Below, in pieces: positions 4,880-61,389 of a DNA stretch of 64,000 bases. Within the stretch, counting starts at the first letter, position 1. Every line of letters begins with the position of its first letter. Made by a program: the position numbers and the translations under genes. The DNA comes from Phoronis australis (taxonomy: Eukaryota > Animalia > Phoronida): assembly GCA_002633005.1 (NCBI GenBank), contig NMRA01000779.1:1-64000 (forward strand), written 5' to 3'. Below the pieces are notes generated by a model. The model was given only the letters and a program-made list of their open reading frames with translations, was not told the origin of the DNA and searched no databases.

Positions 4880-5309
4880 TGGTTGTCCTATTGTTTGTTC
4901 ATGTATGACCTGTATTCAGTGGTTGTCCTATTATGTGTTCATGTATGACCTGTATTCAGCGGTTGTCCTATTGTTTATTCATGTATGACCTGTATTCAGT
5001 GGTTGTCCTATTGTTTGTTCATGTATGACCTGTATTCAGTGGTTATCCTATTGTTTGTTCATGTATGATCTGTATTCAGTGGTTGTCTTATTGTTTGTTC
5101 ATGTATGACCTGTATTCAGTGGTTGTCCTATTGTTTGTTCATGTATGACCTGTATTCAGTGGTTGTCNCATGTATGACCTGTATTCGTGGTTGTCCTATT
5201 GTTTGTTCGTGTATGACCTGTATTTAGTGGTTGTCCTATTGTTTGTTCATGTATGACCTGTATTCAGTGGTTGTCCTGTTGTTTGTTCATGTATGACCTG
5301 TATTCAGTA
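4880..5309. repeat. 40-bp tandem repeat (ttgtttgttcatgtatgacctgtattcagtggttgtccta)
   Basis: About 10 near-identical copies; single N at 5168. Confidence 0.95.
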
Positions 5310-5688
5310 CCAAGTCCCGTAACATGTTGAGGCTAACTTATTTTTTCCATGTATGACATGTTTTCAGTGCTATCGGAGTAAATTAGAATCGCCCAATAAT
5401 GGAATTCTGCTCTCAGTCAAGGTATTTTGATGCTTTAGTTTTTATTTCATGCGAAACTATTTTATGCAAGTCTGCTATGCAGTGATGTGTGTACACCCCC
5501 CCCAATCTCTTTTTCCTTTCAATCGTTAACTAGAAGTATAAACTTCTAATATCTGGTGTACTATGATTCTGTATGTCAGCACTGACAATGGTTGAAGTTC
5601 TACCTTAAATGTTGTTTATGTGTTGATTTAAATAATTGTGTTTATTAACCTGTTCATCATTACCTCCCTCTTGACCATAAAATGCTAG

Positions 5689-6790
5689 TTGAAATACACA
5701 AATCTCCTTGAAGAATGTAAAAATGCAGGATGGCAAACAGTACTGTTCCTTGTTGAAGTTGGCAGTAGAGGCTTCATCTACAAATCATTAAAGTAGGCTG
5801 CTCCTTGAGGTCCCCAAAGAAATCAAAAAACAAACATACCAAACGACCTCTCAGACAGCTCTCACATGTAGCTATATGATATATTTATCAAGAAACAACA
5901 ACTAATTTACGGAATGGCAACTCTGCAACATTTTTAAGCCAGTGATTGAAATGCAAAGAAGAGGTGAAACTATTCACAATCATGACTCAACAGAGAACCC
6001 TATACAATCAGCTACTTCGTCATCCCCGATATTAAGGAAGACGCAAAAAAATCAACAAAAGATAAAAGATTTGGTCTTCCGCAATGTGGAAACACGTGTT
6101 TTGTGAACTCTGCACTCCAAGCTATCTTTTCATGTAAACTCAACTGGCACAAATACAATATCAACAAGAAAAACAATATGAAAACCATCCTTGTGAAGAC
6201 ATATGAAGCAACCAAAAGGTATACATCAACTCCGTCTGAAATTTTGAATAAACTAAGATTACAGAACAACTCTCTTGTTAACGGAAGTCAACAGGATGCC
6301 CATGAGTTTTTACTATGGTTACTATGGTTACTGAACCAATGGTACATAGACACACTTGCGTACAACGCTGATAATCTGTTAAATCGTCATCATGGGAATG
6401 AATAAATTTTGATGACTCTACAGTCATAAGTACATCCAAGCCTCCCCTGGATGCCTACATTGCAATATATGAATTATCTTCTGAAATCCAACAAAGGAAG
6501 TCAACGTAAAAATATGGCACACTTTCAACATAGACGTCGCACATCACATCTGATGCAAACAAGTCAAGATATTTTTGAAATTCATCCTGGTATAGGAATT
6601 GGGCATAGTTAGGCCTATAAAAGATCTTAAACCCAGCCGCAGAGCGTCTAAAGCCGCGCACCGTACCAGTGACTGCTGGCAACTCATCGGAGACACAACT
6701 TTAACATCCTTCGCCGCAGAGATAACAACTCTTAGGCTGTCTCCGGTGAGTCCATTCATTCTTGAATGATGTTTAGGTAAAAGAATACAT
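5689..6790 (+). mobile_element. Decayed 3' fragment of an RLE-type non-LTR retrotransposon followed by a degenerate USP/peptidase C19 domain and a structured 3' region
   Basis: 5692-5796 reads KYTNLLEECKNAGWQTVLFLVEVGSRGFIYKSL (RLE C-terminal motif). 6070-6320 reads FGLPQCGNTCFVNSALQ...QQDAHEFL. ~6395-6480 reads WE*INFDDSTV...AYIAIYE. Stops and frameshifts are present. Confidence 0.7.
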
Positions 6791-7460
6791 AACCAACATT
6801 AGACATTTTCACTCATCAATATGTCATTCTGCCTGGGCATACAGCATCTAGCGTAAGTGTTTTGACAAAGTTTTTCAATCGCTCTAGTTGCAAAATTAGA
6901 GCAGCGCGGGCAAGTGGAGGGAGTTTGTGCTTAAATTTATACTTTGCATCCATTGACTTAGATGAAATTGTTGTGGTAGATCAGTCCTAGAATTATGGGT
7001 ATTTTCAATTCCTATTTCAAGTTGCATGCTTAGCTACTGGAATACACGAGTTTGTTAAAGAGTGCTTACGTAAAAAGCGTCAGCAACTAGCCTTGCATCA
7101 AATCCTTTGAATGTTGGATCTGTGGACTGTATTGTTAAGTGTTAGGTGAAGATGATTGAGTGGCTTGGATTAAGTGGATTATGCATCCATGTAAGTGCCT
7201 ATCTTATCCTATGTTAAGCAACCCACAGTTGTTGAAATGTCTCAGGTCTGATTTAAGCTCCCATTTCTAGGTTCAGCACCCCTAACCTGATTTCCAGAAT
7301 CACCAGTTTAAGTACGCAGATTGTTAATTTGAATGTTTATCGTATTTTAAATGAGTAAATGAGAGCTTTTTGTAATTATTAAATCGACACATAAAAAACA
7401 AGTAACAAATTACATAGCATTGAATGATGGCATAGCCTGTTTCTAAACAGGTTGGTATAT

Positions 7461-7787
7461 GCAGGTCGTTGGCCAATCAAACATATGTCACAAGTACTGC
7501 TAAGCAGGCCGTTGGCCAGTCAGACATGTCGCAAGTACTGCTAAGCAGATCGTTAACATGTCACAAGTACTGCTAAGCAGGTCGTGGGCTAATCAAACAT
7601 GTCGCAAGTACTGCTAAGCTGGTTATTGGCCAATCAAACATGCCGCAAGTACTGCCAAGCAGGTCGTAGGCCAATCAAACATGTCGCAAGTACTGCTAAG
7701 CAGGTCACGGGCCAATCAAACATGTCGCAAGTACGCCTAAGCAGGTCGTTGGCCAATCAAACGTGTCGCAAGTACTGCTAAGCAGGC
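7461..7787. repeat. ~41-bp tandem repeat (gcaggtcgttggccaatcaaacatgtcgcaagtactgctaa)
   Basis: About 8 copies. Confidence 0.9.
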
Positions 7788-7899
7788 TGCATAAACATGT
7801 TAAAAACAGGTAGTGGAGAACGGTGCATTTTATTTTCTCATATTTCCATAAAAGACACCTAGCTGCGTTCTAGTTCTGCAACATAGCTACTACCTCACA

Positions 7900-9120
7900 A
7901 TTCTGTAACATTACTGCTGACAGTTTTGTAACATTACTGCTAACCGACAGTTCTGTAACATTACTGCTAACCGACAGTTCTGTAACATTAGTGCTAACTG
8001 ACAGCTGTGTAACATTACTGTTAACCGACAGTTCTGTAACATTACTGCTAACCGACAGTTCTGTAACATTACTGCTAACCGACAGTTCTGTAACATTACT
8101 GCTAACCGACAGTTCTGTAACATTACTGCTAACCGACAGTTCTGTAACATTACTGCTAACCGACAGTTCTGTAACATTACTGCTAACCGACAGTTCTGTA
8201 ACATTACTGCTAACCGACAGTTCTGTAACATTACTGCTAACCGACAGTTCTGTAACATTACTGCTTACCGACAGTTCTGTAACATTAGTGCTAACTGACA
8301 GCTGTGTAACATTACTGCTAACCGACAGTTCTGTAACATTACTGCTTACCGACAGTTCTGTAACATTACTGCTAACCGACAGTTCTGTAACATTACTGCT
8401 TACCGACAGTTCTGTAACATTAGTGCTAACTGACAGCTGTGTAACATTACTGCTAACCGACAGTTCTGTAACATTACTGCTAACCGACAGTTCTGTAACA
8501 TTACTGCTAACCGACAGTTCTGTAACATTACTGCTAACCGACAGTTCTGTAACATTACTGCTTACCGACAGTTCTGTAACATTAGTGCTAACCGACAGTT
8601 CTGTAACATTACTGCTTACCGACAGTTCTGTAACATTAGTGCTAACTGACAGCTGTGTAACATTACTGCTAACCGACAGTTCTGTAACATTACTGCTAAC
8701 CGACAGTTCTGTAACATTACTGCTAACCGACAGTTCTGTAACATTACTGCTAACCGACAGTTCTGTAACATTACTGCTTACCGACAGTTCTGTAACATTA
8801 CTGCTAACCGACAGTTCTGTAACATTACTGCTTACCGACAGTTCTGTAACATTAGTGCTAACTGACAGCTGTGTAACATTACTGCTAACCGACAGTTCTG
8901 TAACATTACTGCTAACCGACAGTTCTGTAACATTACTGCTAACCGACAGTTCTGTAACATTACTGCTAACCGACAGTTCTGTAACATTACTGCTTACCGA
9001 CAGTTCTGTAACATTACTGCTTACCGACAGTTCTGTAACATTAGTGCTAACTGACAGCTGTGTAACATTACTGCTAACCGACAGTTCTGTAACATTACTG
9101 CTAACCGACAGTTCTATAAC
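7900..9120. repeat. 27-bp minisatellite (gacagttctgtaacattactgctaacc), ~45 copies
   Basis: Near-perfect array with a recurring variant unit (agtgctaactgacagctgtg). The long ORFs on both strands arise because the unit is a multiple of 3. Confidence 0.97.
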
Positions 9121-9382
9121 GTCGCTACTTTCGACAATTTTTAACATAGAAGTAAACATTCGTTGTTAGAACGTCTTGGAAAATGAAAGAATGATAATTT
9201 TGACAATCATATTTGAAAGAAATGAGTGAGGTATTATCCGAAGGTTTGGTAGCTTGTTTCTTAACTCTTCAGCTTTGATAAATTGGTTTCTTGTTCAGTT
9301 AATCTCTCAAGCTTGGTATTTGAACAAAAGTGGTTGTGTAGCAATTGATACACATTCATTGTATCTGTTGTGTGTCTTACTT

Positions 9383-10909: not shown

Positions 10910-11077
10910 ACTGTTGGTCATGTGATCCTAAGGATTGTACAAGCCAGTGCATAAACAAGGATACGAGGTCTTCCCAACTATCATTTTGCTCCTGCATAGG
11001 ACACCTCTGTAACGCCAACTTTACTGACGACTACAATGCTTCTATGAATACACCCACCAAACCTCCGACCCACCCTG
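10910..11077 (+). CDS. BMPR2: BMPR2 ectodomain exon (Cys box); not in ORF track
   Basis: ttgttgtag|AC TGT TGG...CCT G|gtaaga, phase 1-1. Encodes CWSCDPKDCTSQCINKDTRSSQLSFCSCIGHLCNANFT (activin-receptor-type C-x-C-x4-CN box). Confidence 0.85.
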
Positions 11078-12637: not shown

Positions 12638-14073
12638 AGGGAAGGCAACCTTTTTTGTGTCATTTTTAGTAAAAATACAGTTCGTTGATTATATGCTTCA
12701 GATAATGATGGTTCTTCGTGGTTTTATTAACTAGTCGTGCAGTAATCCGGAAGTGACGTTTAGCGGTTTAAGAATTTCCCGACATTTCGTTTCTAGTGCA
12801 TTGGAGTTACTGTGATGATCTGTTCTACTGTTGTTTTTGTGCTAGTCTCCTAATATTGTCGTCACCACTAGCCATCGACGAGTATTCTACGACAAGCTAA
12901 GTTGTTAGAGAACTCGATTACGTTGGATTGAGGAATCTTCTAGTTTGTTGTAGCAGTAGGTGGATATATGTTTGAGCCCGAGCATAGTGAGGTAGAATAC
13001 AGACAGCTGTTGAGAGGGATGAGGCAGCGACTGGGGACAGACGTGGTGGGATGTCTTGGTGCAAATGCAAGGTTTGCACTATGATGCCAACCTCAATGGA
13101 ATGACAATCCTGTTACCATTGGATGGTGACCTGAGCAAGCAAACTTCTTACACCCCACCGTGTGAATCCCTCGCCACACAATTGGCACCTTCTAAATACC
13201 TCCAATACTTTAGTCAATAAACTTATCAAATTTGGCTCACCAGCCTGACCACTGGACGCCAAACTGTCCTCCCCACTGGGTTTTGAACTGGACCTGTATT
13301 CACTCCCACTACTCAACATCGCAGCTGGGCTCCGTACAGGCTCTAAGCTGGAGATAACACCTGCACAGGGCAAATCACTGCTAGAAGAGGCCACAGTTGG
13401 CAAGGTCAATCACTTCAAAAATGCACTTTTTGGGGGTGGCGACGGGGCACTGCCGGGAATCAACAGCATTATTATGACACCCTTCTTCAGGCGTTGTATT
13501 GCAGGAACCTTCACCAATTCCGCGTACACATCTCTTTCGTAATCCAACGGCAGAAAATGCTTGCCACACGCTCTGTAATTCTCCAGTGCTTTGTACGTTG
13601 CATGGACAATAACGCTGCGTTCTTCACATGAACGAGCCAAGTATGGTAGAGCGTTTCATCTTTTGGAAAGCGGTGTGATGGCATACCCAAAGTGCGCGAG
13701 ACGATTATGGGTACACCTCGGTACACAGCAACCGTGCGACATGTTGACTGACTCGTAAACAAACGGAAACGACAACTGAACTTATCATAACCGAAGTAAA
13801 ACAATGAGTGACTTGACAGGTCACACAGTCAGACTAATGAAAACGAAATGACGGTAAATTCTAAACCTCCTAAACGTCACTTCCGGAGTAAGGCACGACT
13901 AGTTAATAAAGTTACAGGAAGCTGTTATTAATTGAAAGAAAAGTCTGGGATAATGTCTGGGATGATGTCTGGGATGATGTCTGGGATGATGTCTGGGATG
14001 ATGTCTGGGATGATGTCTGGAATAATCAACAAACTATATTTTTATTAAAACTGACATGAAAAAGGTTTCCTCA
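12638..14073 (-). mobile_element. Non-autonomous Kolobok-type DNA transposon (frameshifted THAP on -, KolX/P2X7-ballast-like fragment on +)
   Basis: Long imperfect TIRs (AGGGAAGGCAACC...ttcgttgattat). Broken THAP at 13410-13742 (-). GYMFEPE...WCKCKVCTMMPTSME at 12962-13110 (+). Homologous to the 21723-23376 element. Confidence 0.8.
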
Positions 14074-19076: not shown

Positions 19077-19369
19077 TAAGGTGTCCCCTAGACTCAATGA
19101 ATGTAAGCTGTCCCCTAGACTCAACGCTCAATGATTGTAAACACAATGTCTGGAATAGATCTTGTAATTTGTACTTGTATATTGAATATCTCAAGGACTC
19201 AGTTTACTGCCATGAGACATGTATGTGTTGGGAAGGACTCAGTTTACTAGCAGTGATTTGTTGTGAAAATTATGTTTGCTGACATTTACATGCTGTATAT
19301 TTTGTTCAGATATGGCGAGGTTTGGAAAGGTTCCCTCAGTGACATTTGCATGCTGTATATTTTGTTCAG

Positions 19370-19698
19370 ATATGGCGAGGTTTGGAAAGGGTCCCTCAAT
19401 GACAATGATGTTGCTGTCAAGGTGTTCTCACATGCTCAGCGACAGTACTTCAACAATGAACGGGACATTTACTCACTGCCTCTCATACACCATCCCAGTG
19501 TCGTTCACTATTTTGGTACAGAAGAACGGATAAGTGTGGATGGTAACCCTGAGTACCTGCTTATTCTGTCCTATGCATCACATGGATCGCTGCACAGTTA
19601 TTTGAAGAATAATGTTCTGGACTGGTATCAGTTATGCAACATGTCACGCTCCATCGCACAGGGTTTGTCATATCTACATACAGACTTAAGACCTGGAG
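19370..19698 (+). CDS. BMPR2: BMPR2 kinase exon (subdomains I-VIa); alternative in-frame acceptor at 19310
   Basis: ttgttcag|A TAT GGC GAG...GGA G|gtatgt. Encodes YGEVWKG...VAVKVF...NERDIY...GLSYLHTD. Confidence 0.93.
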
Positions 19699-20297
19699 GT
19701 ATGTACAGCAGGAGCTAAGATAGAGTACAACTACATAAACTATTGACAATCTTAAAAGTTCTTTAAACACTTGTGTGGGCTGTGGCAGAACACTCAGTGG
19801 TCAAGTGATTTTGCAATTTCAAGGTTTGAATTTAGTGCCGCCATAGCAGCAGTCAATATTACTATATACTGACTGTTATGTAGTGATGGTTGGGGAGTAT
19901 GAAACACAATAATATGTTAAATTAAAGTTTGTTTCTATTTGGGCGATTAACTAAACTATAAAAATATTTTTGATATCTGACAAATGAATGATTTCCCATA
20001 CTAGCAATTTGACGTTTGTGGAAAAGCAAAATCTTATACCAACTGTCCTGCTCATGTCGGGATTGTAGGGTGATTGGTGATAAAGTTTTATTAGTTTCCA
20101 GGATTATAAACAATTTATTGTCCATTTATTTTGTTTCTCGTGATTATGGTGTTTTCAAGCTTTGCCTCAGCAGTTCTCTGGTAGCTCAAAATTTTGTGTC
20201 AAAGAAGATGTGGAATGGACCACTCGCTGTAAGTCAGCATCACATACATAAGATCACTGTGATTAGATTTAATCTGCTATTCTAAAACTCGTTGCAG

Positions 20298-21435: not shown

Positions 21436-21994
21436 GTTGGTGTCATGGCAACAGGCTTGATGCATTATGGCTACTCTCCATTTAGTCTTCTTGGAGTCTT
21501 TCACCGTGTACTGTCAAGTAGATATATGCAAATATTAAGAAAATAAAATAGTGACTCACCTCTTCCTAATGGCTCACAGGCATTCATGTTTACAAGTGTG
21601 TGACATTGGAATTGGACACTAACAGTTAAGTGGAAGATTACTTGGTAACATGGGACACAACTATTTTTAGACATGCACATGTGACTTGAGTATCAAGTTG
21701 AGCATTCATTGCAAGCTTTTAAAGGTGAAGGCAACCATTTTGCATGTCATTTTCAGTTAAAATAAGGTTCGTTGATTATCCCAGACATGTTTTCCAGTTA
21801 AATACAGCTTTTCGTACTAATCTAACTCATTACTCGTCCACTACTCTTCAAGTGACGAGTGACGTTTAGGGAGTCAAGAATTTCACGCCATTTGTTTTCA
21901 TATAGTCTGACTGTGTGAGCTGGCGAGTCAGTCATTGTTCTACCCTGGTAGTGATCAGTTTGGTCGTCGTTTGCTTTTTTATGAGTCAGTCAAC

Positions 21995-22342
21995 ATGCCG
22001 CACAGTTGCTGCATACCAGGATGTACTCATTGTCGTCTCGCATGTACTCTGGGTGTACCATTACATCACTTTCCGAAAGATTACACACTTCGCCGTACTT
22101 GGCTTATTCGTGAAAAGAACACAGCGTTACCCGTCCAGGCAACGAAAAAAGCAGTGGAGAATTACCGAGTGTGTGGCAAGCATTTTCCGTCGTCAGATTA
22201 TGAAAGAGATATGTACCCTGAATTAATGAAAGTCCCTGCAAAACAATGCCTAAAGAAGGGTGCCATACCGTCAGTACTGATTTCCGACAGTGCCCCGTCG
22301 CCACCCCCGAGAAGTGCATTTTTGAAGCGAGAAACCTTGTGA
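21995..22342 (+). pseudogene. THAP zinc-finger N-terminus of Kolobok transposase (open 115-aa ORF, catalytic domain absent)
   Basis: MPHSCCIPGC...HHFPKD...W...RVCGKHF...LKKGAIPSV (C2CH THAP with AVPTI-like box). Confidence 0.8.
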
Positions 22343-24445: not shown

Positions 24446-24536
24446 GTGCACTGATTTCACCACAACCATAACACTTATATGTATTACTCCAGATGTGCAT
24501 ATAATAATAATTAACATTTTTCATTTCTCATGACAG

Positions 24537-26263
24537 GTGTCACTCCCACTGCAATTAACCACACAATGAGTCAGCCAACTGTGACCACAGATGTTGTCAT
24601 ATCAACTACTACAAACACCATTGAGGAGCCTGAGAGAATGGTGCCCTTGTGTCGAAGTATGAGCGACAGTGACGGAGCTGTTTTGGGTCAATATACCCGC
24701 TTACAACCTAGGCAACGCGAAAGCTTGTCAACAGTCACCGTGGAGACCATCCTGTCACCCAGTACCGATGGCAACGATGTAGTACCAGCAGCAACCGTGA
24801 ATGCCAACAAAAAAGAGAATGTCAATCTGAAGTACGAGATGGCCCAGAAAGCAATTCAGCCGCATCAGGGGCGCAACCCTACAGTGGAGAGGAATACACA
24901 CAGGGGGAGTGAGGAGGAGTTGGCTGTGTTCGACAACACGCTGATGGATGCCAAGATGGCTGCCAAACAGCAGGCAGAGCGGGAGAGACAACGAGAGCAG
25001 TTGGTGCATGAGCAGGAGGCAGAGGAGCAAAGAGATGGGAGTCACAGGAACATGCGTGGGGCTGAGGGGGGGCTGGCTGAACCCGTCAATGTCTTCCGGA
25101 ATACGCCTATACCGTATGTACAGAACCGGGTGCACGAACCCAGTGTAGCAGTTGTGCGACCCAAGGTGTCTAATGTTCCAGGTAATGGTTCTCANCAGGG
25201 GCGCAACCCTACAGTGGAGAGGAATACACACAAGGGGAGTGAGGAGGAGTTGGCTGTGTTCGACAACACGCTGATGGACGCCAAGATGGCTGCCAAACAG
25301 CAGGCAGAGCGGGAGAGACAACGAGAGCAGTTGGTGCATGAGCAGGAGGCAGAGGAGCAAAGAGATGGGAGTCACAGGAACATGCGTGGGGCTGAGGGGG
25401 GGCTGGCTGAACCCGTCAATGTCTTCCGGAATACGCCTATACCGTATGTACAGAACCGGGTGCACGAACCCAGTGTAGCAGTTGTGCGACCCAAGGTGTC
25501 TAATGTTCCAGGTAATGGTTCTCACCATGCAGAGGAAGAGTCATGTTATGGTAAGCCACAGAACACAGACAAGAGTAAGAAACACAAGGACAAGCGGGGT
25601 ATCATGGGTATGTTGTCCAAGAACCTTAAATCATTTGGCAATCATTTTCATAGTGGCAGTTTGGATGACATGACATCGTCAGCTACTCATCACTATGATG
25701 TTGAGTCAGGAACTGGTGCAAAATGTAGTGTTGCTCCTGAAGAACGGAGACCTCTATTAACTGAGGTCTGTGTTGTGAATGGTTCCCCTGTGGTTAGACC
25801 AGCCACGTTTGCTGTCAATCACATCGCAGTAACAGGGGAGTCAAAGTTAGGAATAGCTGAAGTAGGCGTGGCTAAGCTACAGCCCGCCCACCAGCCTGAT
25901 AGTTTGCCATTCAGGGTCAAAGAGCGCAATAACAGGGCTCAGAGTGAAACTGATCTCAGCCCGTCTGGTGCTGAGAAAGCTGTACGTCCAAATTCGCTTC
26001 GTCTAAGGGGACATAACTACCGTTCTGATCCTCAGCTAAATCGCAGTGACCAGAATTCAATGCAGTGTCAAGAGAGAGGTCAGCGTGGACAGAAAGCAGT
26101 TCAGAATCGTGGTGTGCGAAGACTGCCTGTCCATGGCTCATCACTGTCTGTGGAGTCAAACTCTAATAATGGACTCAACCGGAACAGGGGAGGACAGCAT
26201 GCTAACAGCAACTCACATGGAACCGAAATGAACCTGTTGAATGTTACTGAGCCCGCCTTTTGA
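24537..26263 (+). CDS. BMPR2: BMPR2 last exon: long cytoplasmic tail (contains a 330-bp duplication joined by an N)
   Basis: catgacag|GT GTC..., phase 1, open to TGA 26263. Contains the QPHQGRNPTVERN (Wit-type) and RPNSL motifs. The nine exons sum to an intact frame. Confidence 0.88.
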
Positions 26264-36813: not shown

Positions 36814-37042
36814 ATGACGTCACTCAAATTTCCGCCATGCGTTTTACAGGGAGCTTAGTCGTATAAAATGCAGATCAAGCAAAAATCAGTAAGGGTTAGT
36901 TCTACGGTAGTCAACTATTTGTCACTATTTTGGAAACTCAACTCAGTACTGTTCTGTCGTAATTGGAACACACATGCGCAAAATTATGCATTGGCGCCAT
37001 GTATGTGCAACACTTTCACTTTGATTCCAATGTGTTTTGAAG

Positions 37043-37273
37043 GTCAACCTGATTTCCAAGAAACACCATCTGATGAAGTATTGGAAGACTTGAAGAACGT
37101 TTCCAAAACATTTCAACTTCCTCATTTAGAGACGATCTGCCGTAACATAGAGAAAGACGAAGACTTTCTAAATCCAAGCATTGGGACATTTTTGAACGAC
37201 GAGACTGCAAAGAGACTAAAACAACTCTTTCTCAACAAATCTTTGTATTCAGACATCACGTTTCAAATAGGAA
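37043..37273 (+). CDS. RhoBTB/RacA-like exon 7
   Basis: tttgaag|GQPD...FLNPSIGTFLNDETAKRLKQLFLNKSLYSDITFQIG|gtaagt. Confidence 0.92.
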
Positions 37274-37508
37274 GTAAGTAAATGATCACCTCAACTATGT
37301 ATGATACACATTTCTAAACAACACTCAACTAAAAAAGAGTGATAATACTGATACCGCAACTTCTCCCCATAGCGATATCATGGGCACGGAAACTGTATTT
37401 TGTCTCCGCTCTTTGACGTATTGTCTTGAGAAGTAACATGTCTTTTTTCTAAAGCAAATGTATAATGTCATATGTTGATGTAATACAAAATGATTGGTTG
37501 CCTTTCAG

Positions 37509-37858
37509 AATGCAAAATACACGCCCATAAAGTCATTCTTGCAACACGTTGTGAGGTAATGGCGGCCATGTTTTGCGGCCATTTTGCTGAAGGTAAAGGA
37601 GGGAGCAGTGCATGCACAGTTTCGCTCCCAGATGCCGAGCTTGACAACTTCTTGGCTCTCCTAGAGTATTTATATACCGACCATGCACCAATTGAAGAGG
37701 GTGATTCAGTGGGAATACTTTACACAGCGGATTTATACTGCCAGACACGACTCATTAATCTTTGCGAACTGTACATTTCAAAGGAAGTGGATCGGTCAGT
37801 TACAAAATGTATCGAAACATCACAGATTGACGTCATCGGACTCTTGCATCTAGCGCAG
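37509..37858 (+). CDS. RhoBTB/RacA-like exon 8 (BTB2)
   Basis: ctttcag|KCKIHAHKVILATRCEVMAAMF...LEYLYTDH...RLINLCE...LHLAQ|gtaacc. Confidence 0.95.
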
Positions 37859-38169
37859 GTAACCATTACAACTTCTACTTATTAGTATTGAATAGTTACT
37901 TAAGCTATTTACCTCTTCATTATAAAACGCTGGTTTTCCAGAAGTCTTGAATTACCGCGAACACACCCTTCGTTAATTTATGCATGCTTTAATAGTGTAC
38001 GTAAAGAATATCCTCATGTCCTGTTCTCACCACGCCTTCTTTTCGTTGGCTTTCAAGAGTGTCAGGTGACTGTGAAGTTTCTTCGATATCTATGAATCTA
38101 GATTTTTGCGATAACTTCAAAACCGGAAGATCGGCTAAATTTGGTTGTGTGAGGTTTAGACTTCGCAAA

Positions 38170-40931: not shown

Positions 40932-41400
40932 AGGAGAATGCCACCCGATTTAATTAGTTTTTTTACCGTCTTAATCGGTCTACATCCACATCGCCTCTTA
41001 TACTGTCGACCTCACCTTGCCGAGAGGTGTCGCGTAACATGTGAGGAAGGTGGGAAACGACGCAGCGAAGTCAGTGGTTCGTCTGCAGAGTGAATGCCGC
41101 TATATTGCGATGCATCGTTCCCGCTTGTGTCCGAACAAGAAGCTGCGAAGAAAGCGGGTATATCGTTTTAGCGACTTCCTCGAGAGCCCTAAATGCTTAG
41201 GAAGTGGCTCGCAGTAGTGAAGAATGAAAGATACGCTGTTAATAGAAAGTATGAGGCCGTGAAACACCAACGTGTCTGTGGCCGGCAGTTCGTCGACAGT
41301 GAATTCTCTGACGAATTCCGGCTTACCAAAGAACTATCCATACGTTCCGTTGCCTACAAACAAAAGACTAAAATTCCCCCTGTGTCTTATGAAATGAAGA
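40932..41400 (+). mobile_element. Left part of another Kolobok-type element with a degraded THAP domain
   Basis: TTAA|AGGAGAATGCCACC terminus. MP..CIVPAC...GISF*RLP...LRKWL...RVCGRQFVDSEF at ~41094-41350. Right end not found. Confidence 0.6.
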
Positions 41401-41873
41401 CTTTACTTAGTTGTACTTTGCACCTTTTCACTTCTTTGATTACAATCTTACGCTTCCAGATTTTGATTCAATTGAAAGAGTACTTGGCAATAAGCCAATG
41501 ACCCAAGTGAATGCGTGAAGTTTACGATTTCACCTCTAGGTAAAAATGCAAATGGTGGAGTGAAAAGCGAACAACAAATTATCGAGTTAAGAAGGGCTTG
41601 CTTTCCGTGCAGTTTTATTCGCCGTATCGTTTTTACGAATATCTTTATGGGATCGTAATATGAACGTGTGGGGGTCAACATGCGATGTGCAATGGAAGTG
41701 CAATATATATGTCACATAATCTTACACGCTCCCAACGCAAGTACGTTCAACACTGTGTTTGCCATTTTGTGCTCACAGATTTCGACGTGATGACATCTTA
41801 TTAAAATTAGTAGTCGGCGAGCGAATTTATTTTGAAGCACGCAATTTTCGTGCATTCGTATTCGTTGTATCAT

Positions 41874-55799: not shown

Positions 55800-58201
55800 A
55801 GATATTGTTGCGTGTCCCTGAGATGTTGTCAATCTGGGCATAGATGCTAATGCATGCTGGGAAATTGGACACTCATGTTGTATTTCTAAGTCGGTTTGTG
55901 ATAATCACGCACGATTCACGTCAATTAAACTCAGAGCTGACCGACCTCAATGGTTAACGGATGACTATATTGCCCTCTCATTGAACCGTGAATATTGGCA
56001 TACCAAGGCATGGAAATGGGGACTTGCTGATAATTGGTCAAAGGCTAAAGACCTCAGAAATCGTTGCAATAATCTAATCAAAGCACTACCAAAGTGCAAT
56101 TGAAAATGCAAATGGTAGTAAATAACTATGGAAAACTTTTAAAAAGCTTCTAACCGAAAAGGGTAATGATCGAATCCAATCTAGTTGGCGATGCTGAATC
56201 AAGTGATCTCAAGAAAATAGCAGAAGAGCTGAATACATTTTATTTCTTCAGTTGGTAGGAAATTGGCCCAAAAATTCTCTGGTGTGCATCAGCCAAATGA
56301 TTCCAGTCTATTACTTTTCAAAGCGTTTAAGTGTTGTGATATCTCTGGGGATTTCACCTCAACACTGCTTACCAAACTTAACGTAAACAAGTCTACTGGC
56401 ATGGACGAGATTTCATCTAAATTACTGAAACTCGTGGGACCGTTGATCTGTAAATCACTTACATTCATTTTCAACAAATCGTTGGAAACACAGTTCGTAC
56501 CAGCAGCATGGAAGAAGGCCAAAGTGACACCCATTTTTAAGGTAGGCGATGAAAATATTGTAAACAATTATCGTCCAACCTCAGATGTCCCTGTTGTTAT
56601 GAAACTTTTTGAAAGAGGTGTACACTCACAACTGTACTCTTATTTAAAGTCAAACAATTTTTTATTTGACGAACGGTCGGGGTTTCGCCCTGCGCACTCT
56701 ATAACTACTTCTCTTCTTGACATAACTGACTACTTACTTGACAATACGGACAATGGTAATATTACTGGTGCAAACTTTCTGGACCTGAAGAAAGCTTTCG
56801 ATGCTGTTAACCACAATAGCTTAGTATTAAATCTTTCTAGATGTGGTGTACGCGACGCCGAATTCGACTGGTTCTAATCAGTAATTATTTGAGTAACCGG
56901 AATTAAGTTACTATTCTGAATGGGGCGATATCAACACCACTTGACATTAAATATGGTGTCCCCTAAGGGTCGATACTCGGCCCAGTGATATTTTGTGTAC
57001 ACGTAAATGATTAACCCCCGTCAGTGAAACAATGTAGAATTAATTTGTGTGCAGACGACACTGCCGTCTTCTTTGCTGCCAAATGAATGGATGAAGTCAA
57101 GCACCTTAGCAGAAGAAATGAATCGTGTTTATGCTTGGCTTGTGAAGAACAAACTGACACTGAATAATGATAAAATCAAAGCTATGATTATTGGTAGCAG
57201 ACAGAGGCTGGCTGTTTAGTCTCCAAGCAACATTGCCATTACTATCAACGGCACCCAACTGGCAAAAATTGAGAAATATAAATATCTAGGTGTTATTGCT
57301 CAGATTAATCTAATGAAATTTGTATTTCACGCCACTGCTCTCAGGGAAAAGCTGCTCAGCTTTATCCTGTAAATTTTATGTAACATGTGGGCCAAGGCCT
57401 TGAATGTTGAAATACATGAATTTGAATTTGATTGATAATAATTTATCGTGGGACAAACATGTTGAGTATATATGCAAAAAAAGTTTCTCTGTACAAGAGT
57501 CTAATTGTACAACACTTTGATTACTGTGATGTATGGGGTGACTGTGCATCATACCTTCAAGATAGACTTCAAAAATTACAAAACACGACTGGTGTGCTGA
57601 TACTCAACTATAGTAGCCTTTATAATGAGTTTCCTCATTTCAGAAATCCTCGATAAGCACTGTTGGTGCAGCCTAGTTAGCAGGCGTGCCTTTCATTTAA
57701 ACGTTGTGGTGTAAAAAGCCACACATAGCTTCACACCAGTTTACCTAACTACTAAATTCAAAGCAGTCAGAGATTCAAAACCAGAGCGAGTGTTTTTGGC
57801 TACCTGGTATCAGATATACTTAAAAACAACTGTGCGAAAAGAACTTTTGCCTACATATGTGCTGTCGCATACAAAGGTCTGGGGATTGTCATCGCGAACC
57901 CGCCCTATGTCTTCAAACAGAATTAATGGGATTTTGTGCGTGGTTTGGGATTCTAGGCCTCAGCTCATCATTATTTTACTCTATTTTATCCTATTTATTC
58001 ATCTAATTGTACATATCATCTATTTTTATACTGATATATTTTATTTAATAATCTTTTCAATCTAATTGTACATACACGTAGCTGTCTGTATTTTACGTCA
58101 TGTAAATTTTTCCTACTGGGCCCACTTGAAACTCAATGTATTCACTGACGTGGTCACCCAGACTCTTTTAAAGAAGTTTGAATAAACAAATAAATAAATA
58201 T
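55800..58201 (+). mobile_element. 5'-truncated, decayed CR1/L2-clade LINE (RT pseudogene)
   Basis: KSTGMDEISSKLLK, WKKAKVTPIFK, NYRP, GFRPAHS, FLDLKKAFD, GVP*GSILGP, CADDT, YKYLG motifs with stops; tail gaataaacaaataaataaata. Confidence 0.9.
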
Positions 58202-58392
58202 ATTGTCCCATGGTGCACGAGGAATAAAGAGACGTATCCCATAGTGCGTAAGACATTCGTAGTTTTAAATTCTGGATTAGTACTGCAATTACCTTGTGCT
58301 TTCCAGTTTGTCGAGCTTGTTTTTAATTTTAACTGCATGACCTTCGTCAACTGACAATAATCAACAGTATTCACGGTGGTGACAAAATAAAN

Positions 58393-59862
58393 CTACTGGC
58401 ATGGACGAGATTCCATCTAAATTACTGAAACTCGTGGGACCGTTGATCTGTAAATCACTTACATTCATTTTCAACAAATCGTTGGAAACACAGTTCGTAC
58501 CAGCAGCATGGAAGAAGGCCAAAGTGACACCCATTTTTAAGGTAGGCGATAAAAATATTGTAAACAATTATCGTCCAACCTCAGATGTCCATGTTGTTAT
58601 GAAACTTTTTGAAAGAGGTGTACACTCACAACTGTACTCTTATTTAAAGTCAAACAATTTTTTATTTGACGAACGGTCGGGGTTTCGCCCCGCGCACTCT
58701 ATAACTACTTCTCTTCTTGACATAACTGACTACTTACTTGACAATACGGACAATGGTAATATTACTGGTGCAAACTTTCTGGACCTGAAGAAAGCTTTCG
58801 ATGCTGTTAACCACAATAGCTTAGTATTAAATCTTTCCTGTAAATTTTATGTAACATGTGGGCCAAGGCCTTGAATGTTGAAATACATGAATTTGAATTT
58901 GATTGATAATAATTTATCGTGGGACAAACATGTTGAGTATACATGCAAAAAAAGTTTCTCTGTACAAGAGTCTAATTGTACAACACTTTGATTACTGTGA
59001 TGTATGGGGTGACTGTGCATCATACCTTCAAGATAGACTTCAAAAATTACAAAACACGACTGGTGTGCTGATACTCAAATATAGTAGCCTTTATAATGAG
59101 TTTCCTCATTTCAGAAATCCTCTATAAGCACTGTTGGTGCAGCCTAGTTAGCAGGCGTGCCTTTCATTTAAACGTTGTGGTGTAAAAAGCCACGCATAGC
59201 TTCACACCAGTTTACCTAACTACTAAATTCAAAGCAGTCAGAGATTCAAAACCAGAGCGAGTGTTTTTGGCTACCTGGTATCAGATATACTTAAAAACAA
59301 CTGTGGGAAAAGAACTTTTGCCTACAGATCTGCTGTCGCATACAAAGGTCTGGGGATTGTCATCGCGAACCCGCCCTATGTCTTCAAACAGAATTACTGG
59401 GATTTTGTGCGTGGTTTGGGATTCTAGGCCTCAGCTCATCATTATTTTACTCTATTTTATCCTATTTATTCATCTAATTGTACATATCATCTATTTTTAT
59501 ACTGATATATTTTATTTAATAATCTTTTCAATCTAATTGTACATACACGTAGCTGTCTGTATTTTACGTCATGTAAATTTTTCCTACTGGGCCCACTTGA
59601 AACTCAATGTATTCACTGACGTGGTCACCCAGACTCTTTTAAAGAAGTTTGAATAAACAAATAAATAAATATATTGTCCCATGGTGCACGAGGAATAAAG
59701 AGACGTATCCCATAGTGCGTAAGACATTCGTAGTTTTAAATTCTGGATTAGTACTGCAATTACCTTGTGCTTTCCAGTTTGTCGAGCTTGTTTTTAATTT
59801 TAACTGCATGACCTTCGTCAACTGACAATAATCAACAGTATTCACGGTGGTGACAAAATAAA
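58393..59862 (+). repeat. Near-identical second copy of 56393-58391 with a 529-bp deletion (probable haplotype/assembly duplicate)
   Basis: Begins at single N 58392; offset is 2000 before the deletion and 1471 after. Confidence 0.85.
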
Positions 59863-60259
59863 CTTTGAATTAAGTTCGAAGCGCGTTCCCCCACGTGACG
59901 TACCTTTTATGAATTACTGTGATGCCAAGCCAAGGAACGTTACGCGATGGAATTTATTACGAACCTTTGTGGAATTGACAGCACTATGATTGCAAAGAAT
60001 CGCACATGGCTGTTTGTTTGAAAAAGTACTGACTTACAAGTAGGCGTCCCATACACTTTGCTGAAATTACGCACATGTAGCATTCAGTCAAAGTTTAACT
60101 TAGAAGCGACTAATATGTAGGCAGCACTTGCAAAGAGTTAAGTTTATGTAACACGTCGAGATAGTAAGGATCAGTTACCCATAAAGCACAGGGAACACAG
60201 TGCGATCTAACAATAACTATTCTGCGTTCTACCGTGTCTCAGACATGTTTGTCGTCACT

Positions 60260-60974
60260 TTAACGGCATCTACCAAAATAACACCTGCCCCGACAACAGG
60301 CTGGTCTACCTCTACCGCAGAGAGCACTGCGGCGTCCACAAGGCCGACATCGTCCGAAGGAACAATATGGTGTGTATCGGCAACAGCTTGGCCTGCCCCT
60401 ACCGCACAGAGCACCATTTCCACCGCAAGGCCGACATCGTCCAAACAAACAAAAAGGAGCGTTTCTGCAGCAACTGGGCCTGCCTCGACCACACAATGCA
60501 CCATTGCGTCCACAAGGCCGACATCGTCCGAAGGAACAATATGGTGTATATCGGCAACAGCCAGGCCTGCCCCTACCGCACAGAGCACCATTTCCACCGC
60601 AAGGCCGACACCGTCCAAAAGAACAGAAAGGGGTTCTTGCGCAACAGCTTGGCCTGCCCCTACCGCACAGAGCACCATTTCCACCACAAGGCCGACATCG
60701 TCCAAATAAACAAAAAGGAGTGTTTCTGCAGCAAACGGGCCTGCCTCGACCACACAATGCCCCATTGCGTCCACAAGGCCGACATCGTCCGAAGGAACAA
60801 TATGGTGTATATCGGCAACAGCCAGGCCTGTCCCTACCGCACAGAGCACCATTTCCACCGCAAGGTCGACACCGTCCGAAAGAGCAATAAGGGGCGAACC
60901 TGCAGCATGGGGGTCTTCCTCTGCCACAGCGATGTCCGATCCGACCGCACGCTTGTCTCCTCTGGAAGTCCTCA
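60260..60974 (-). CDS. Last exon of a secreted-type precursor: RR|Q site plus eight tandem 29-aa knottin/ICK-type domains
   Basis: ctgattgtag|T GAG GAC TTC CAG AGG AGA CAA GCG TGC... gives EDFQRR-QA-[CX6CX6CCX5CX4C-RP]x7-CX6CX6CCX3CX4C-R-stop. All 48 Cys are invariant and there is synonymous variation between repeats. AATAAA at 59953-59958 (-). Confidence 0.85.
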
Positions 60975-61389
60975 CTACAATCAGAATAATTCTCTTGATA
61001 TCATTTAGTTCAAGCCCGTGCTAGGCATTCGTATGGGAAGTGCAATATTTGTAACTAGTGCACCATCGCATTTACTCTTCAGATTTATTTGAGAATTGTT
61101 CACCCTGGCGTCGCCGATCCTTCTTACCGTTCCGGCTACGTGCATGAAGTCATAAAATAAAGCGACACACTAACACCAATTCTGGCCTATTCTTCTTATT
61201 TTATGCAACAGTTCGTTGGTCCTAATTGAACACCAAATGAACAATAACTGAACACCAAATAAACACTAAGTGAACACCAAATAAACTTGGAATTTACCCA
61301 AGATCAACATTATGCAGTATTAGCGTTAGGAATTAGGAGCATTAACATCGTAAGCACGGTTTTATCTGATGCAAGCTAGACATACATAC

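Follow-up and report, generated by a model that had tools for sequence, protein, structure and literature searches.

The capture of ubiquitin proteases by transposons is already known for Ulp1, Josephin and OTU domains and, in Helentrons, for ubiquitin-specific proteases (USP, family C19). NeSL and Utopia-1_TSP carry an Ulp1 protease N-terminal of the reverse transcriptase (RT) (PMC4640811), and Dualen (RandI) and Chlamys-1_cBra carry a Josephin-like domain that is proposed to interfere with the degradation of proteins (PMC8557442). UCH domains are reported in HLE2 Helentrons (PMC11417382), a C-terminal OTU or Ulp1 domain in Ginger1, and a Trichomonas transposase_11 combined with Peptidase C19 (PMC2836005). 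A USP behind a restriction-like endonuclease (RLE) was not found in the papers searched, and passages of PMC6431247, PMC13708176 and PMC13580325 mention no USP in RLE elements; the layout is new relative to these papers, and Repbase and Dfam entries or RLE surveys may already list it.

Here we describe such a layout in a 64-kb window of the Phoronis australis genome (64,000 nucleotides, the whole stretch of DNA analysed). We read the locus, with a probability of about 0.7, as a dead copy of a likely HERO-like non-LTR retrotransposon whose sister copies likely encode an RLE end, a linker and a USP in one frame, the USP likely deubiquitinating the element's own protein-RNA complex. NeSL and Utopia-1_TSP resemble it in being RLE elements whose protein also contains a protease for a ubiquitin-like protein, but theirs is an Ulp1 (SUMO, C48) N-terminal of RT in target-specific elements, whereas the window element has a C19 USP C-terminal of the RLE. 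Dualen and Chlamys-1_cBra are likewise retroelements with a deubiquitinase-type domain, but the protease family is another, Dualen has two endonucleases and Chlamys is Penelope-like. The Helentrons of the HLE2 group, the Trichomonas transposase_11 and Ginger1 are alike in having captured a ubiquitin protease but are DNA transposons, not retroelements.

The element lies in an intron of a BMPR2-like gene and on the same strand as the gene, the setting recognized by a first-pass annotation of the sequence. The kinase exon (19317-19703, + strand) has BMPR2 as its best match (E 1.1e-30), and the intron is bounded upstream by an ectodomain exon at 2120-2320 (+; assigned by eye from its Cys pattern and splice sites) and downstream by a second Cys-rich, ectodomain-like exon at 10910-11077 (+), the two giving no significant Pfam matches. 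A long BMPR2-like tail exon (24515-26260) repeats a stretch of itself exactly, with a single N (25195) at the joint, and this is probably an artefact of assembly. Other features of the window, recognized by eye, are the exons of a BTB-domain gene of RhoBTB-like appearance (36859-37882), THAP-domain-like fragments at 13116-13828, 21911-22339 and 41193-41498 (among them one related pair, its members on opposite strands), and two near-identical RT fragments of CR1/L2 type (56233-56874 and 58383-58871). Each RT fragment is followed by a similar stretch (57715 and 59186; a local duplication or assembly repeat), and as far as seen they bear no relation to the element described here. Tandem repeats occur at 4880-5300, 7460-7790, 7900-9160 and 60185-61020, with units of ~39, 50, 24 and longer, Cys/His-coding letters.

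Steps in depth and diverging copies delimit, at 5690-6781 (+), one copy of a repeated mobile element, truncated at its 5' end and carrying an internal deletion. Public reads and contigs from six different runs of nine were aligned to the window; runs X1-X3 belong to one study and may include the assembly's own source, and the RNA runs come from another study. Read and contig depth rises at ~5690 and falls after 6781, other copies extending upstream of 5690 and diverging after 6781. Over 5660-6379 the median depth, which is summed contig depth and not copy number, is 1524 in X2 (17-20 in single-copy flank bins) and 113 in X1 (8 in the flank bins), and throughout the interval from the RLE-like part to the USP it stays above flank level. 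The copies found here are dispersed, share a 3' end at 6781-6782 before diverse flanks, break off at several points on the 5' side, have a tail ending in A and include 3' pieces in excess, a pattern that fits a non-LTR element; dispersal, a fixed 3' end and variable 5' truncation are expected of an RLE-type non-LTR retrotransposon. No target-site duplication was found around 5690-6781; such duplications are not obligatory for RLE elements, and Utopia rarely shows one (PMC4640811). Nor was a second copy found in the 64-kb window or any Rfam match at the 3' junction and tail (6450-6850). The copy sits in a protein-gene intron and the family has diverse 3' flanks, rather than the SL, U2 or rDNA targets of NeSL/Utopia or R2; dispersed, non-rDNA insertion fits HERO, which includes "many non-specific retrotransposons" (PMC4640811). 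Shorter derivatives of the family also exist, in which joints at 6034-6508 and 6035-6520 (in DNA contigs and a few RNA reads) leave out the entire USP. In run X6, which bears a second organism label, the USP half (6104-6311) is matched at 95-99% identity by eight short contigs lacking the RLE part, and these may derive from a close relative or from contamination.

On six-frame translation the coding remains of the window copy, all on the + strand, fall into pieces in different frames. RLE-like piece A (5689-5793, frame +1) ends in a stop, and a stop and frameshift (5794-5801), private to this copy as judged from reads and contigs, separate it from RLE-like piece B (5798-5905, frame +2), which contains the last helix (TAL..SY.IYLSR) and ends in a further private stop. 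A poorly conserved linker (5906-6060) with a private frameshift near 6045 leads into the N-terminal half of the USP (6061-6375, frame +1), containing the Cys codon (6097-6099) and QQDAHEFL (6289-6309) and assigned by Pfam, PDB and tree: it scores 48.3 bits against Pfam UCH (E 1.3e-12; cut-off 23.9), far above chance, and matches 13 PDB USP sequences at E<=0.001, with USP46, USP12 and USP2 the nearest. The C-terminal end of the USP (6378-6476, frame 0) carries W*INFDD...AYIAIY (6393-6476). The Cys box, the QQD motif and this end had been placed correctly in the first-pass annotation, but the HHG it took for the His box is a wrong-frame reading behind a deletion at 6375/6377, where the USP frame reads VKSS. 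The breaks also outnumber the stop and frameshift it named: besides those at 5794-5801 there are others at 5903, 6045, 6079/6086 (a compensated pair), 6310 and 6399, and the deletion. Its description of the copy as dead and internally deleted holds.

In other copies the RLE-like part and the USP share one frame. This frame was pieced together from short reads and contigs that overlap one another; in the window's species none of them was found to cover RLE through USP by itself. Most other copies lack the stop at 5794-5801: five extra letters at 5796-5801 are carried by 830/830 of the depth in X2, 160/160-176 in X3 and 66/83 in X1, and by 22/35 reads in X8, where 7/35 have a different indel at 5801. 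The stop at 5903 is missing in 61/63 X8 reads and in the DNA contigs, one extra letter near 6045 is present in X1 (79/79 depth), X9 (10/10 reads) and X8 (29/35 reads), and some copies have an in-frame form of the linker shorter by 51 nt. Within the USP, a 9-nt duplication at 6310 is absent from 41/56 X8 reads and the stop at 6399 is missing in 15/16. In many other copies the frame ends directly behind 6476, with loose ends behind 6477 (X8, 25 reads; X9, 14 reads; X1, one contig; translated by hand) starting with a stop.

The middle of the USP can likewise be followed in the sister copies. Loose ends behind 6375 (41 X8 reads, 15 X9 reads and three X3 contigs) enter the start of the fingers region, and those before 6377 (15 X9 reads and two X3 contigs), translated by hand, read GGHY in the frame of VKSS..W..FDD, the His-box GHY thus recurring in two runs with silent letter differences within it. 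Reads thus depart on both sides of 6375/6377, into the start of the fingers and into GHY, which shows that the window copy has lost the USP middle. The loss at this junction (6375-6377) takes in the fingers region and the His box and amounts, as estimated from the outside relative P0107 (below), to some 120-130 codons. The sister reads show only the first residues of the fingers subdomain deleted here. The Cys/His/Asp triad motifs are present in the sister copies when read by hand; the window copy is without the His box.

The same layout recurs in one protein from outside this genome. An exhaustive protein search with the window's USP half returned 103 proteins, and for 30 of these matches the clusters were examined; both parts occur together in a single outside relative, from one of the 30. 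This protein, P0107 (ENA, 428 aa, on a contig of 2316 bp), came from the cluster of the best single-domain match and comprises, in one frame, an RLE end, a linker and a complete USP. The USP scores 100.2 bits against Pfam UCH (cut-off 23.9), and its residues 121-412 align with USP2 at Cys130, His378, Asp393/394 and both CxxC pairs of the fingers, so that the intact triad sought in the first-pass annotation is found in full in the same layout; a predicted Atlas structure of P0107 superposes on USP models with TM 0.58-0.66. Piece B of the window copy matches P0107 residues 4-26 at 12/23 identical positions (E 9e-06), P0107 scoring highest of 125 proteins (55; the next reaches 42), and at 3/3 amino-acid differences between the window copy and its sisters, the sisters carry the residue of P0107. 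The window USP half is ~40% identical to P0107. P0005, a second USP of this type (42% identical to P0107), has no visible RLE. With P0107 alone as scan query no loci were retrieved, and metagenome, viral and prokaryote scans with the USP gave generic USPs only (24, 38 and 1 loci), flanked by neither an RLE nor an RT motif. Two further matches, P0002 and P0004, are proteins of ~2000 aa with six or seven tandem USP domains, P0002 coming from fish with a cluster member named USP18-like.

These data bear on whether the two halves are neighbors by chance, a LINE fragment beside a processed USP pseudogene. In PDB the USP half comes closest to the host proteins USP46 and USP12, as such a neighborhood would predict, but the RLE-like part, linker and USP are multi-copy together and P0107 has the same layout. 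The window USP, P0107 and P0005 form a clade (starred, 95/83) apart from the USP12/46-like and other host clades in a careful tree, whose 29 rows were chosen from the 59 of a quick tree (88 there). P0107 is ~25% identical to the host and viral USPs (USP2/8/21, USP12/46, USP36/42 and those of giant viruses), which share its fold and triad but fall in separate clades. USP12/46, suggested as donor by the PDB matches, is unsupported by the tree, and no host donor is resolved among its 29 rows. A processed pseudogene of a host USP was also rejected, the domain being not close to any one host USP and repeating together with the RLE-like part. With other genomic copies carrying both parts in one frame, the fusion perceived in the first-pass annotation holds against chance juxtaposition, which we consider highly improbable.

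The USP could instead be a separate second frame, or a passenger carried along without selection. RNA reads over 5958-5967 show the letters of a linker stop in 20/24 (X8) and 31/32 (X7, at 5966), if the third letter is unchanged, so that copies dominating the RNA reads possibly have a stop here, and the USP-skipping derivatives described above exist; but the DNA contigs over the same positions (depth 98-501) have an open linker without the stop letters, and P0107 is a single frame. Selection was gauged from 37 sites, a small and tool-selected set (51 listed, minus seven beside indels and seven outside the frame): in the domain cores 6/9 of the sites varying between copies are silent, against 4/18 of the window-private changes (Fisher p 0.039), and in the linker 2/8 are silent. 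This silent excess and a triad kept across about 40% identity make a second frame or a passenger quite unlikely, and we retain the reading of a single RLE-linker-USP frame.

The assignment of the N-terminal part to an RLE proceeds from its motif. Piece A contains KY..L...C...GW....VEVG.RG, which we take to be the C-terminal RLE motif of the HERO/R2 group. In three contigs, loose ends before 5690 (30 letters, translated by hand) read E.AH.RKR into KY, and the HERO motif runs E.AH.RK..KY..L...GW...VEVG.RG. The likeness to HERO lies in this motif and in the dispersed insertion; the differences are the linker and USP behind the RLE, and the last helix, AL..SY.IYLSR, unlike the HERO ending. The CCHC knuckle and PD..D core of an RLE element would lie upstream of 5690. 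The first-pass annotation had named the RLE end from KY...VEVGSRGF, and the motif stands where it was seen, but its label received no support from Pfam (0/2 RLE-like pieces matched) or from PDB (no R2 match); a word-based search of the protein collection with the RLE part scored 0/3 candidates, and eight loci in viral contigs fitted a degenerate RLE pattern, none of them RLE (seven read in frame, one not). To go by the letters of the motif, the C-terminal part of the element's frame is likely the end of a restriction-like endonuclease, and by motif and ends together the element likely behaves as an RLE non-LTR retrotransposon, likely a HERO-like one.

An RT beside this USP was absent from everything reached: 0/103 representatives by motif and 0/23 by Pfam, 0/10 long matches and 0/71 loci, with no RT or RLE motif among the 103 USP-half matches. 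A word-based search of the USP half against longer proteins scored 0/124 candidates, and a profile search of proteins of 750-2140 aa scored 10/7987, all ordinary USPs. Five multi-stretch top matches were tandem-USP or host proteins without RT. Of the single frame of RT, CCHC, RLE and C19 envisaged at first pass, the RLE-like end and USP are found in frame, but the searches yielded no RT-bearing protein.

The family might accordingly be one that does not encode RT, either a non-autonomous composite or another class of transposon (e.g. Helentron-related). Besides the missing RT, the lack of a target-site duplication and an RLE label without tool support speak for it, as does a group of USPs (P0007 from JGI, with P0023, P0108 and P0103) preceded by the C-terminal half of an AP-endonuclease-like domain (in P0007, Pfam E 0.002, under the cut-off). 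These USPs, possibly of Helentron type, lie near the RLE-type USPs in the quick tree (95), and UCH domains are reported in HLE2 Helentrons (PMC11417382); but the link falls to 79/88 in the careful tree, the RLE motif continues upstream in other copies, and variable 5' ends with a fixed 3' end fit retrotransposition. We regard an element that encodes no RT as unlikely, and proceed with a retrotransposon of RLE type.

The 3' untranslated tail (6477-6781, +; delimited by depth and loose ends) has features of its own, its last ~190 nt being far commoner than the element body. A TATAAAAG box at 6616-6623 (+), a likely promoter, lies in a stretch translating to GIVRPIK, which equals the C-terminal end of P0107 at 7/7 residues (1/2000 shuffles as good; the comparison with P0005 was not significant, at 392/2000 shuffles). 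That the TATA-bearing stretch encodes the same seven residues as the P0107 end suggests conservation as DNA. Downstream are a stable hairpin (6681-6752, +; z -3.0, 0/200 shuffles) and, at 6746-6751 (+), a splice-donor-like GTGAGT from which sense RNA reads exit to diverse sequences. Loose ends behind 6745, 6746 and 6747 number 152, 74 and 50 in X7 (276 reads) and 131 and 58 at the first two positions in X8, with agreement of 0.38-0.49 and one partner common to both RNA runs. In X7 sense depth climbs from 34 at 6604 to 378 at 6734, against 31 to 45 for antisense, and the bin depths fit, roughly, a transcription start near 6646-6652; no sharp start is seen among the loose ends listed (22 of 200). 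The tail is likely a promoter with a first exon. A spliced-leader RNA or an internal exon was considered but is not favored: ~100 nt or more precede the donor, and none of the 22 of 200 loose ends listed is a matching one on the acceptor side.

RNA from the body is mostly antisense, with strand inferred from the splice donor: mean depth is 41 against 2 in X7 and 40 against 4 in X8, an excess over 5690-6500 of about 9-20 times in the two samples. Such RNA is as would come from copies inside opposite-strand transcripts or from small-RNA precursors, and the samples therefore give little sign of element mRNA.

A full-length element would encode a single protein with RT, presumably upstream, followed by RLE and a terminal USP. 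Insertion would proceed by target-primed reverse transcription, with early stops leaving 5'-truncated copies such as that of the window, and the USP, if active, would free the element's own protein-RNA complex of ubiquitin and thereby slow its removal by the host. Since fusion ties the protease to the transposition protein, action in cis is favored, and we give it about an even chance; removal of ubiquitin from chromatin or repair proteins at the nick has a clearly smaller share, and other roles the smallest. More broadly, the same element could direct its USP at the host, whether at histones and repair factors at the insertion site or at innate-immune signaling. A position directly behind the endonuclease would place the USP at the nick, and Bao et al. 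propose a role for transposon proteases in DNA repair during transposition (PMC2836005); but apart from the fusion itself the USP has no recognizable targeting domain, and we think a host-directed USP improbable, if less so than an element without RT. Deubiquitination of the element's own complex remains the preferred reading.

In this family the RLE would not be the end of the protein, and would tolerate a roughly 300-residue enzyme behind it. R2-group proteins are being engineered for gene insertion (PMC13580325), and with a USP fused to an R2-group protein end, the idea of host control is testable by one catalytic mutation. A C19 protease at this new position joins Ulp1 and Josephin among the protease families taken up by retroelements, and the added family strengthens the case that hosts generally restrain transposition by ubiquitin-dependent removal. 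Should the tail be a promoter, the host would also gain new first exons from the family. A wider proposal, to us doubtful, is an old, widespread and undescribed RLE lineage with an active terminal USP and a conserved TATA promoter and splice donor in its tail, the USP perhaps drawn from a pool shared with Helentrons. If true, such a lineage would both disarm ubiquitin-based control and, in the manner of an LTR, seed many promoter-first-exon units that splice into host sequences.
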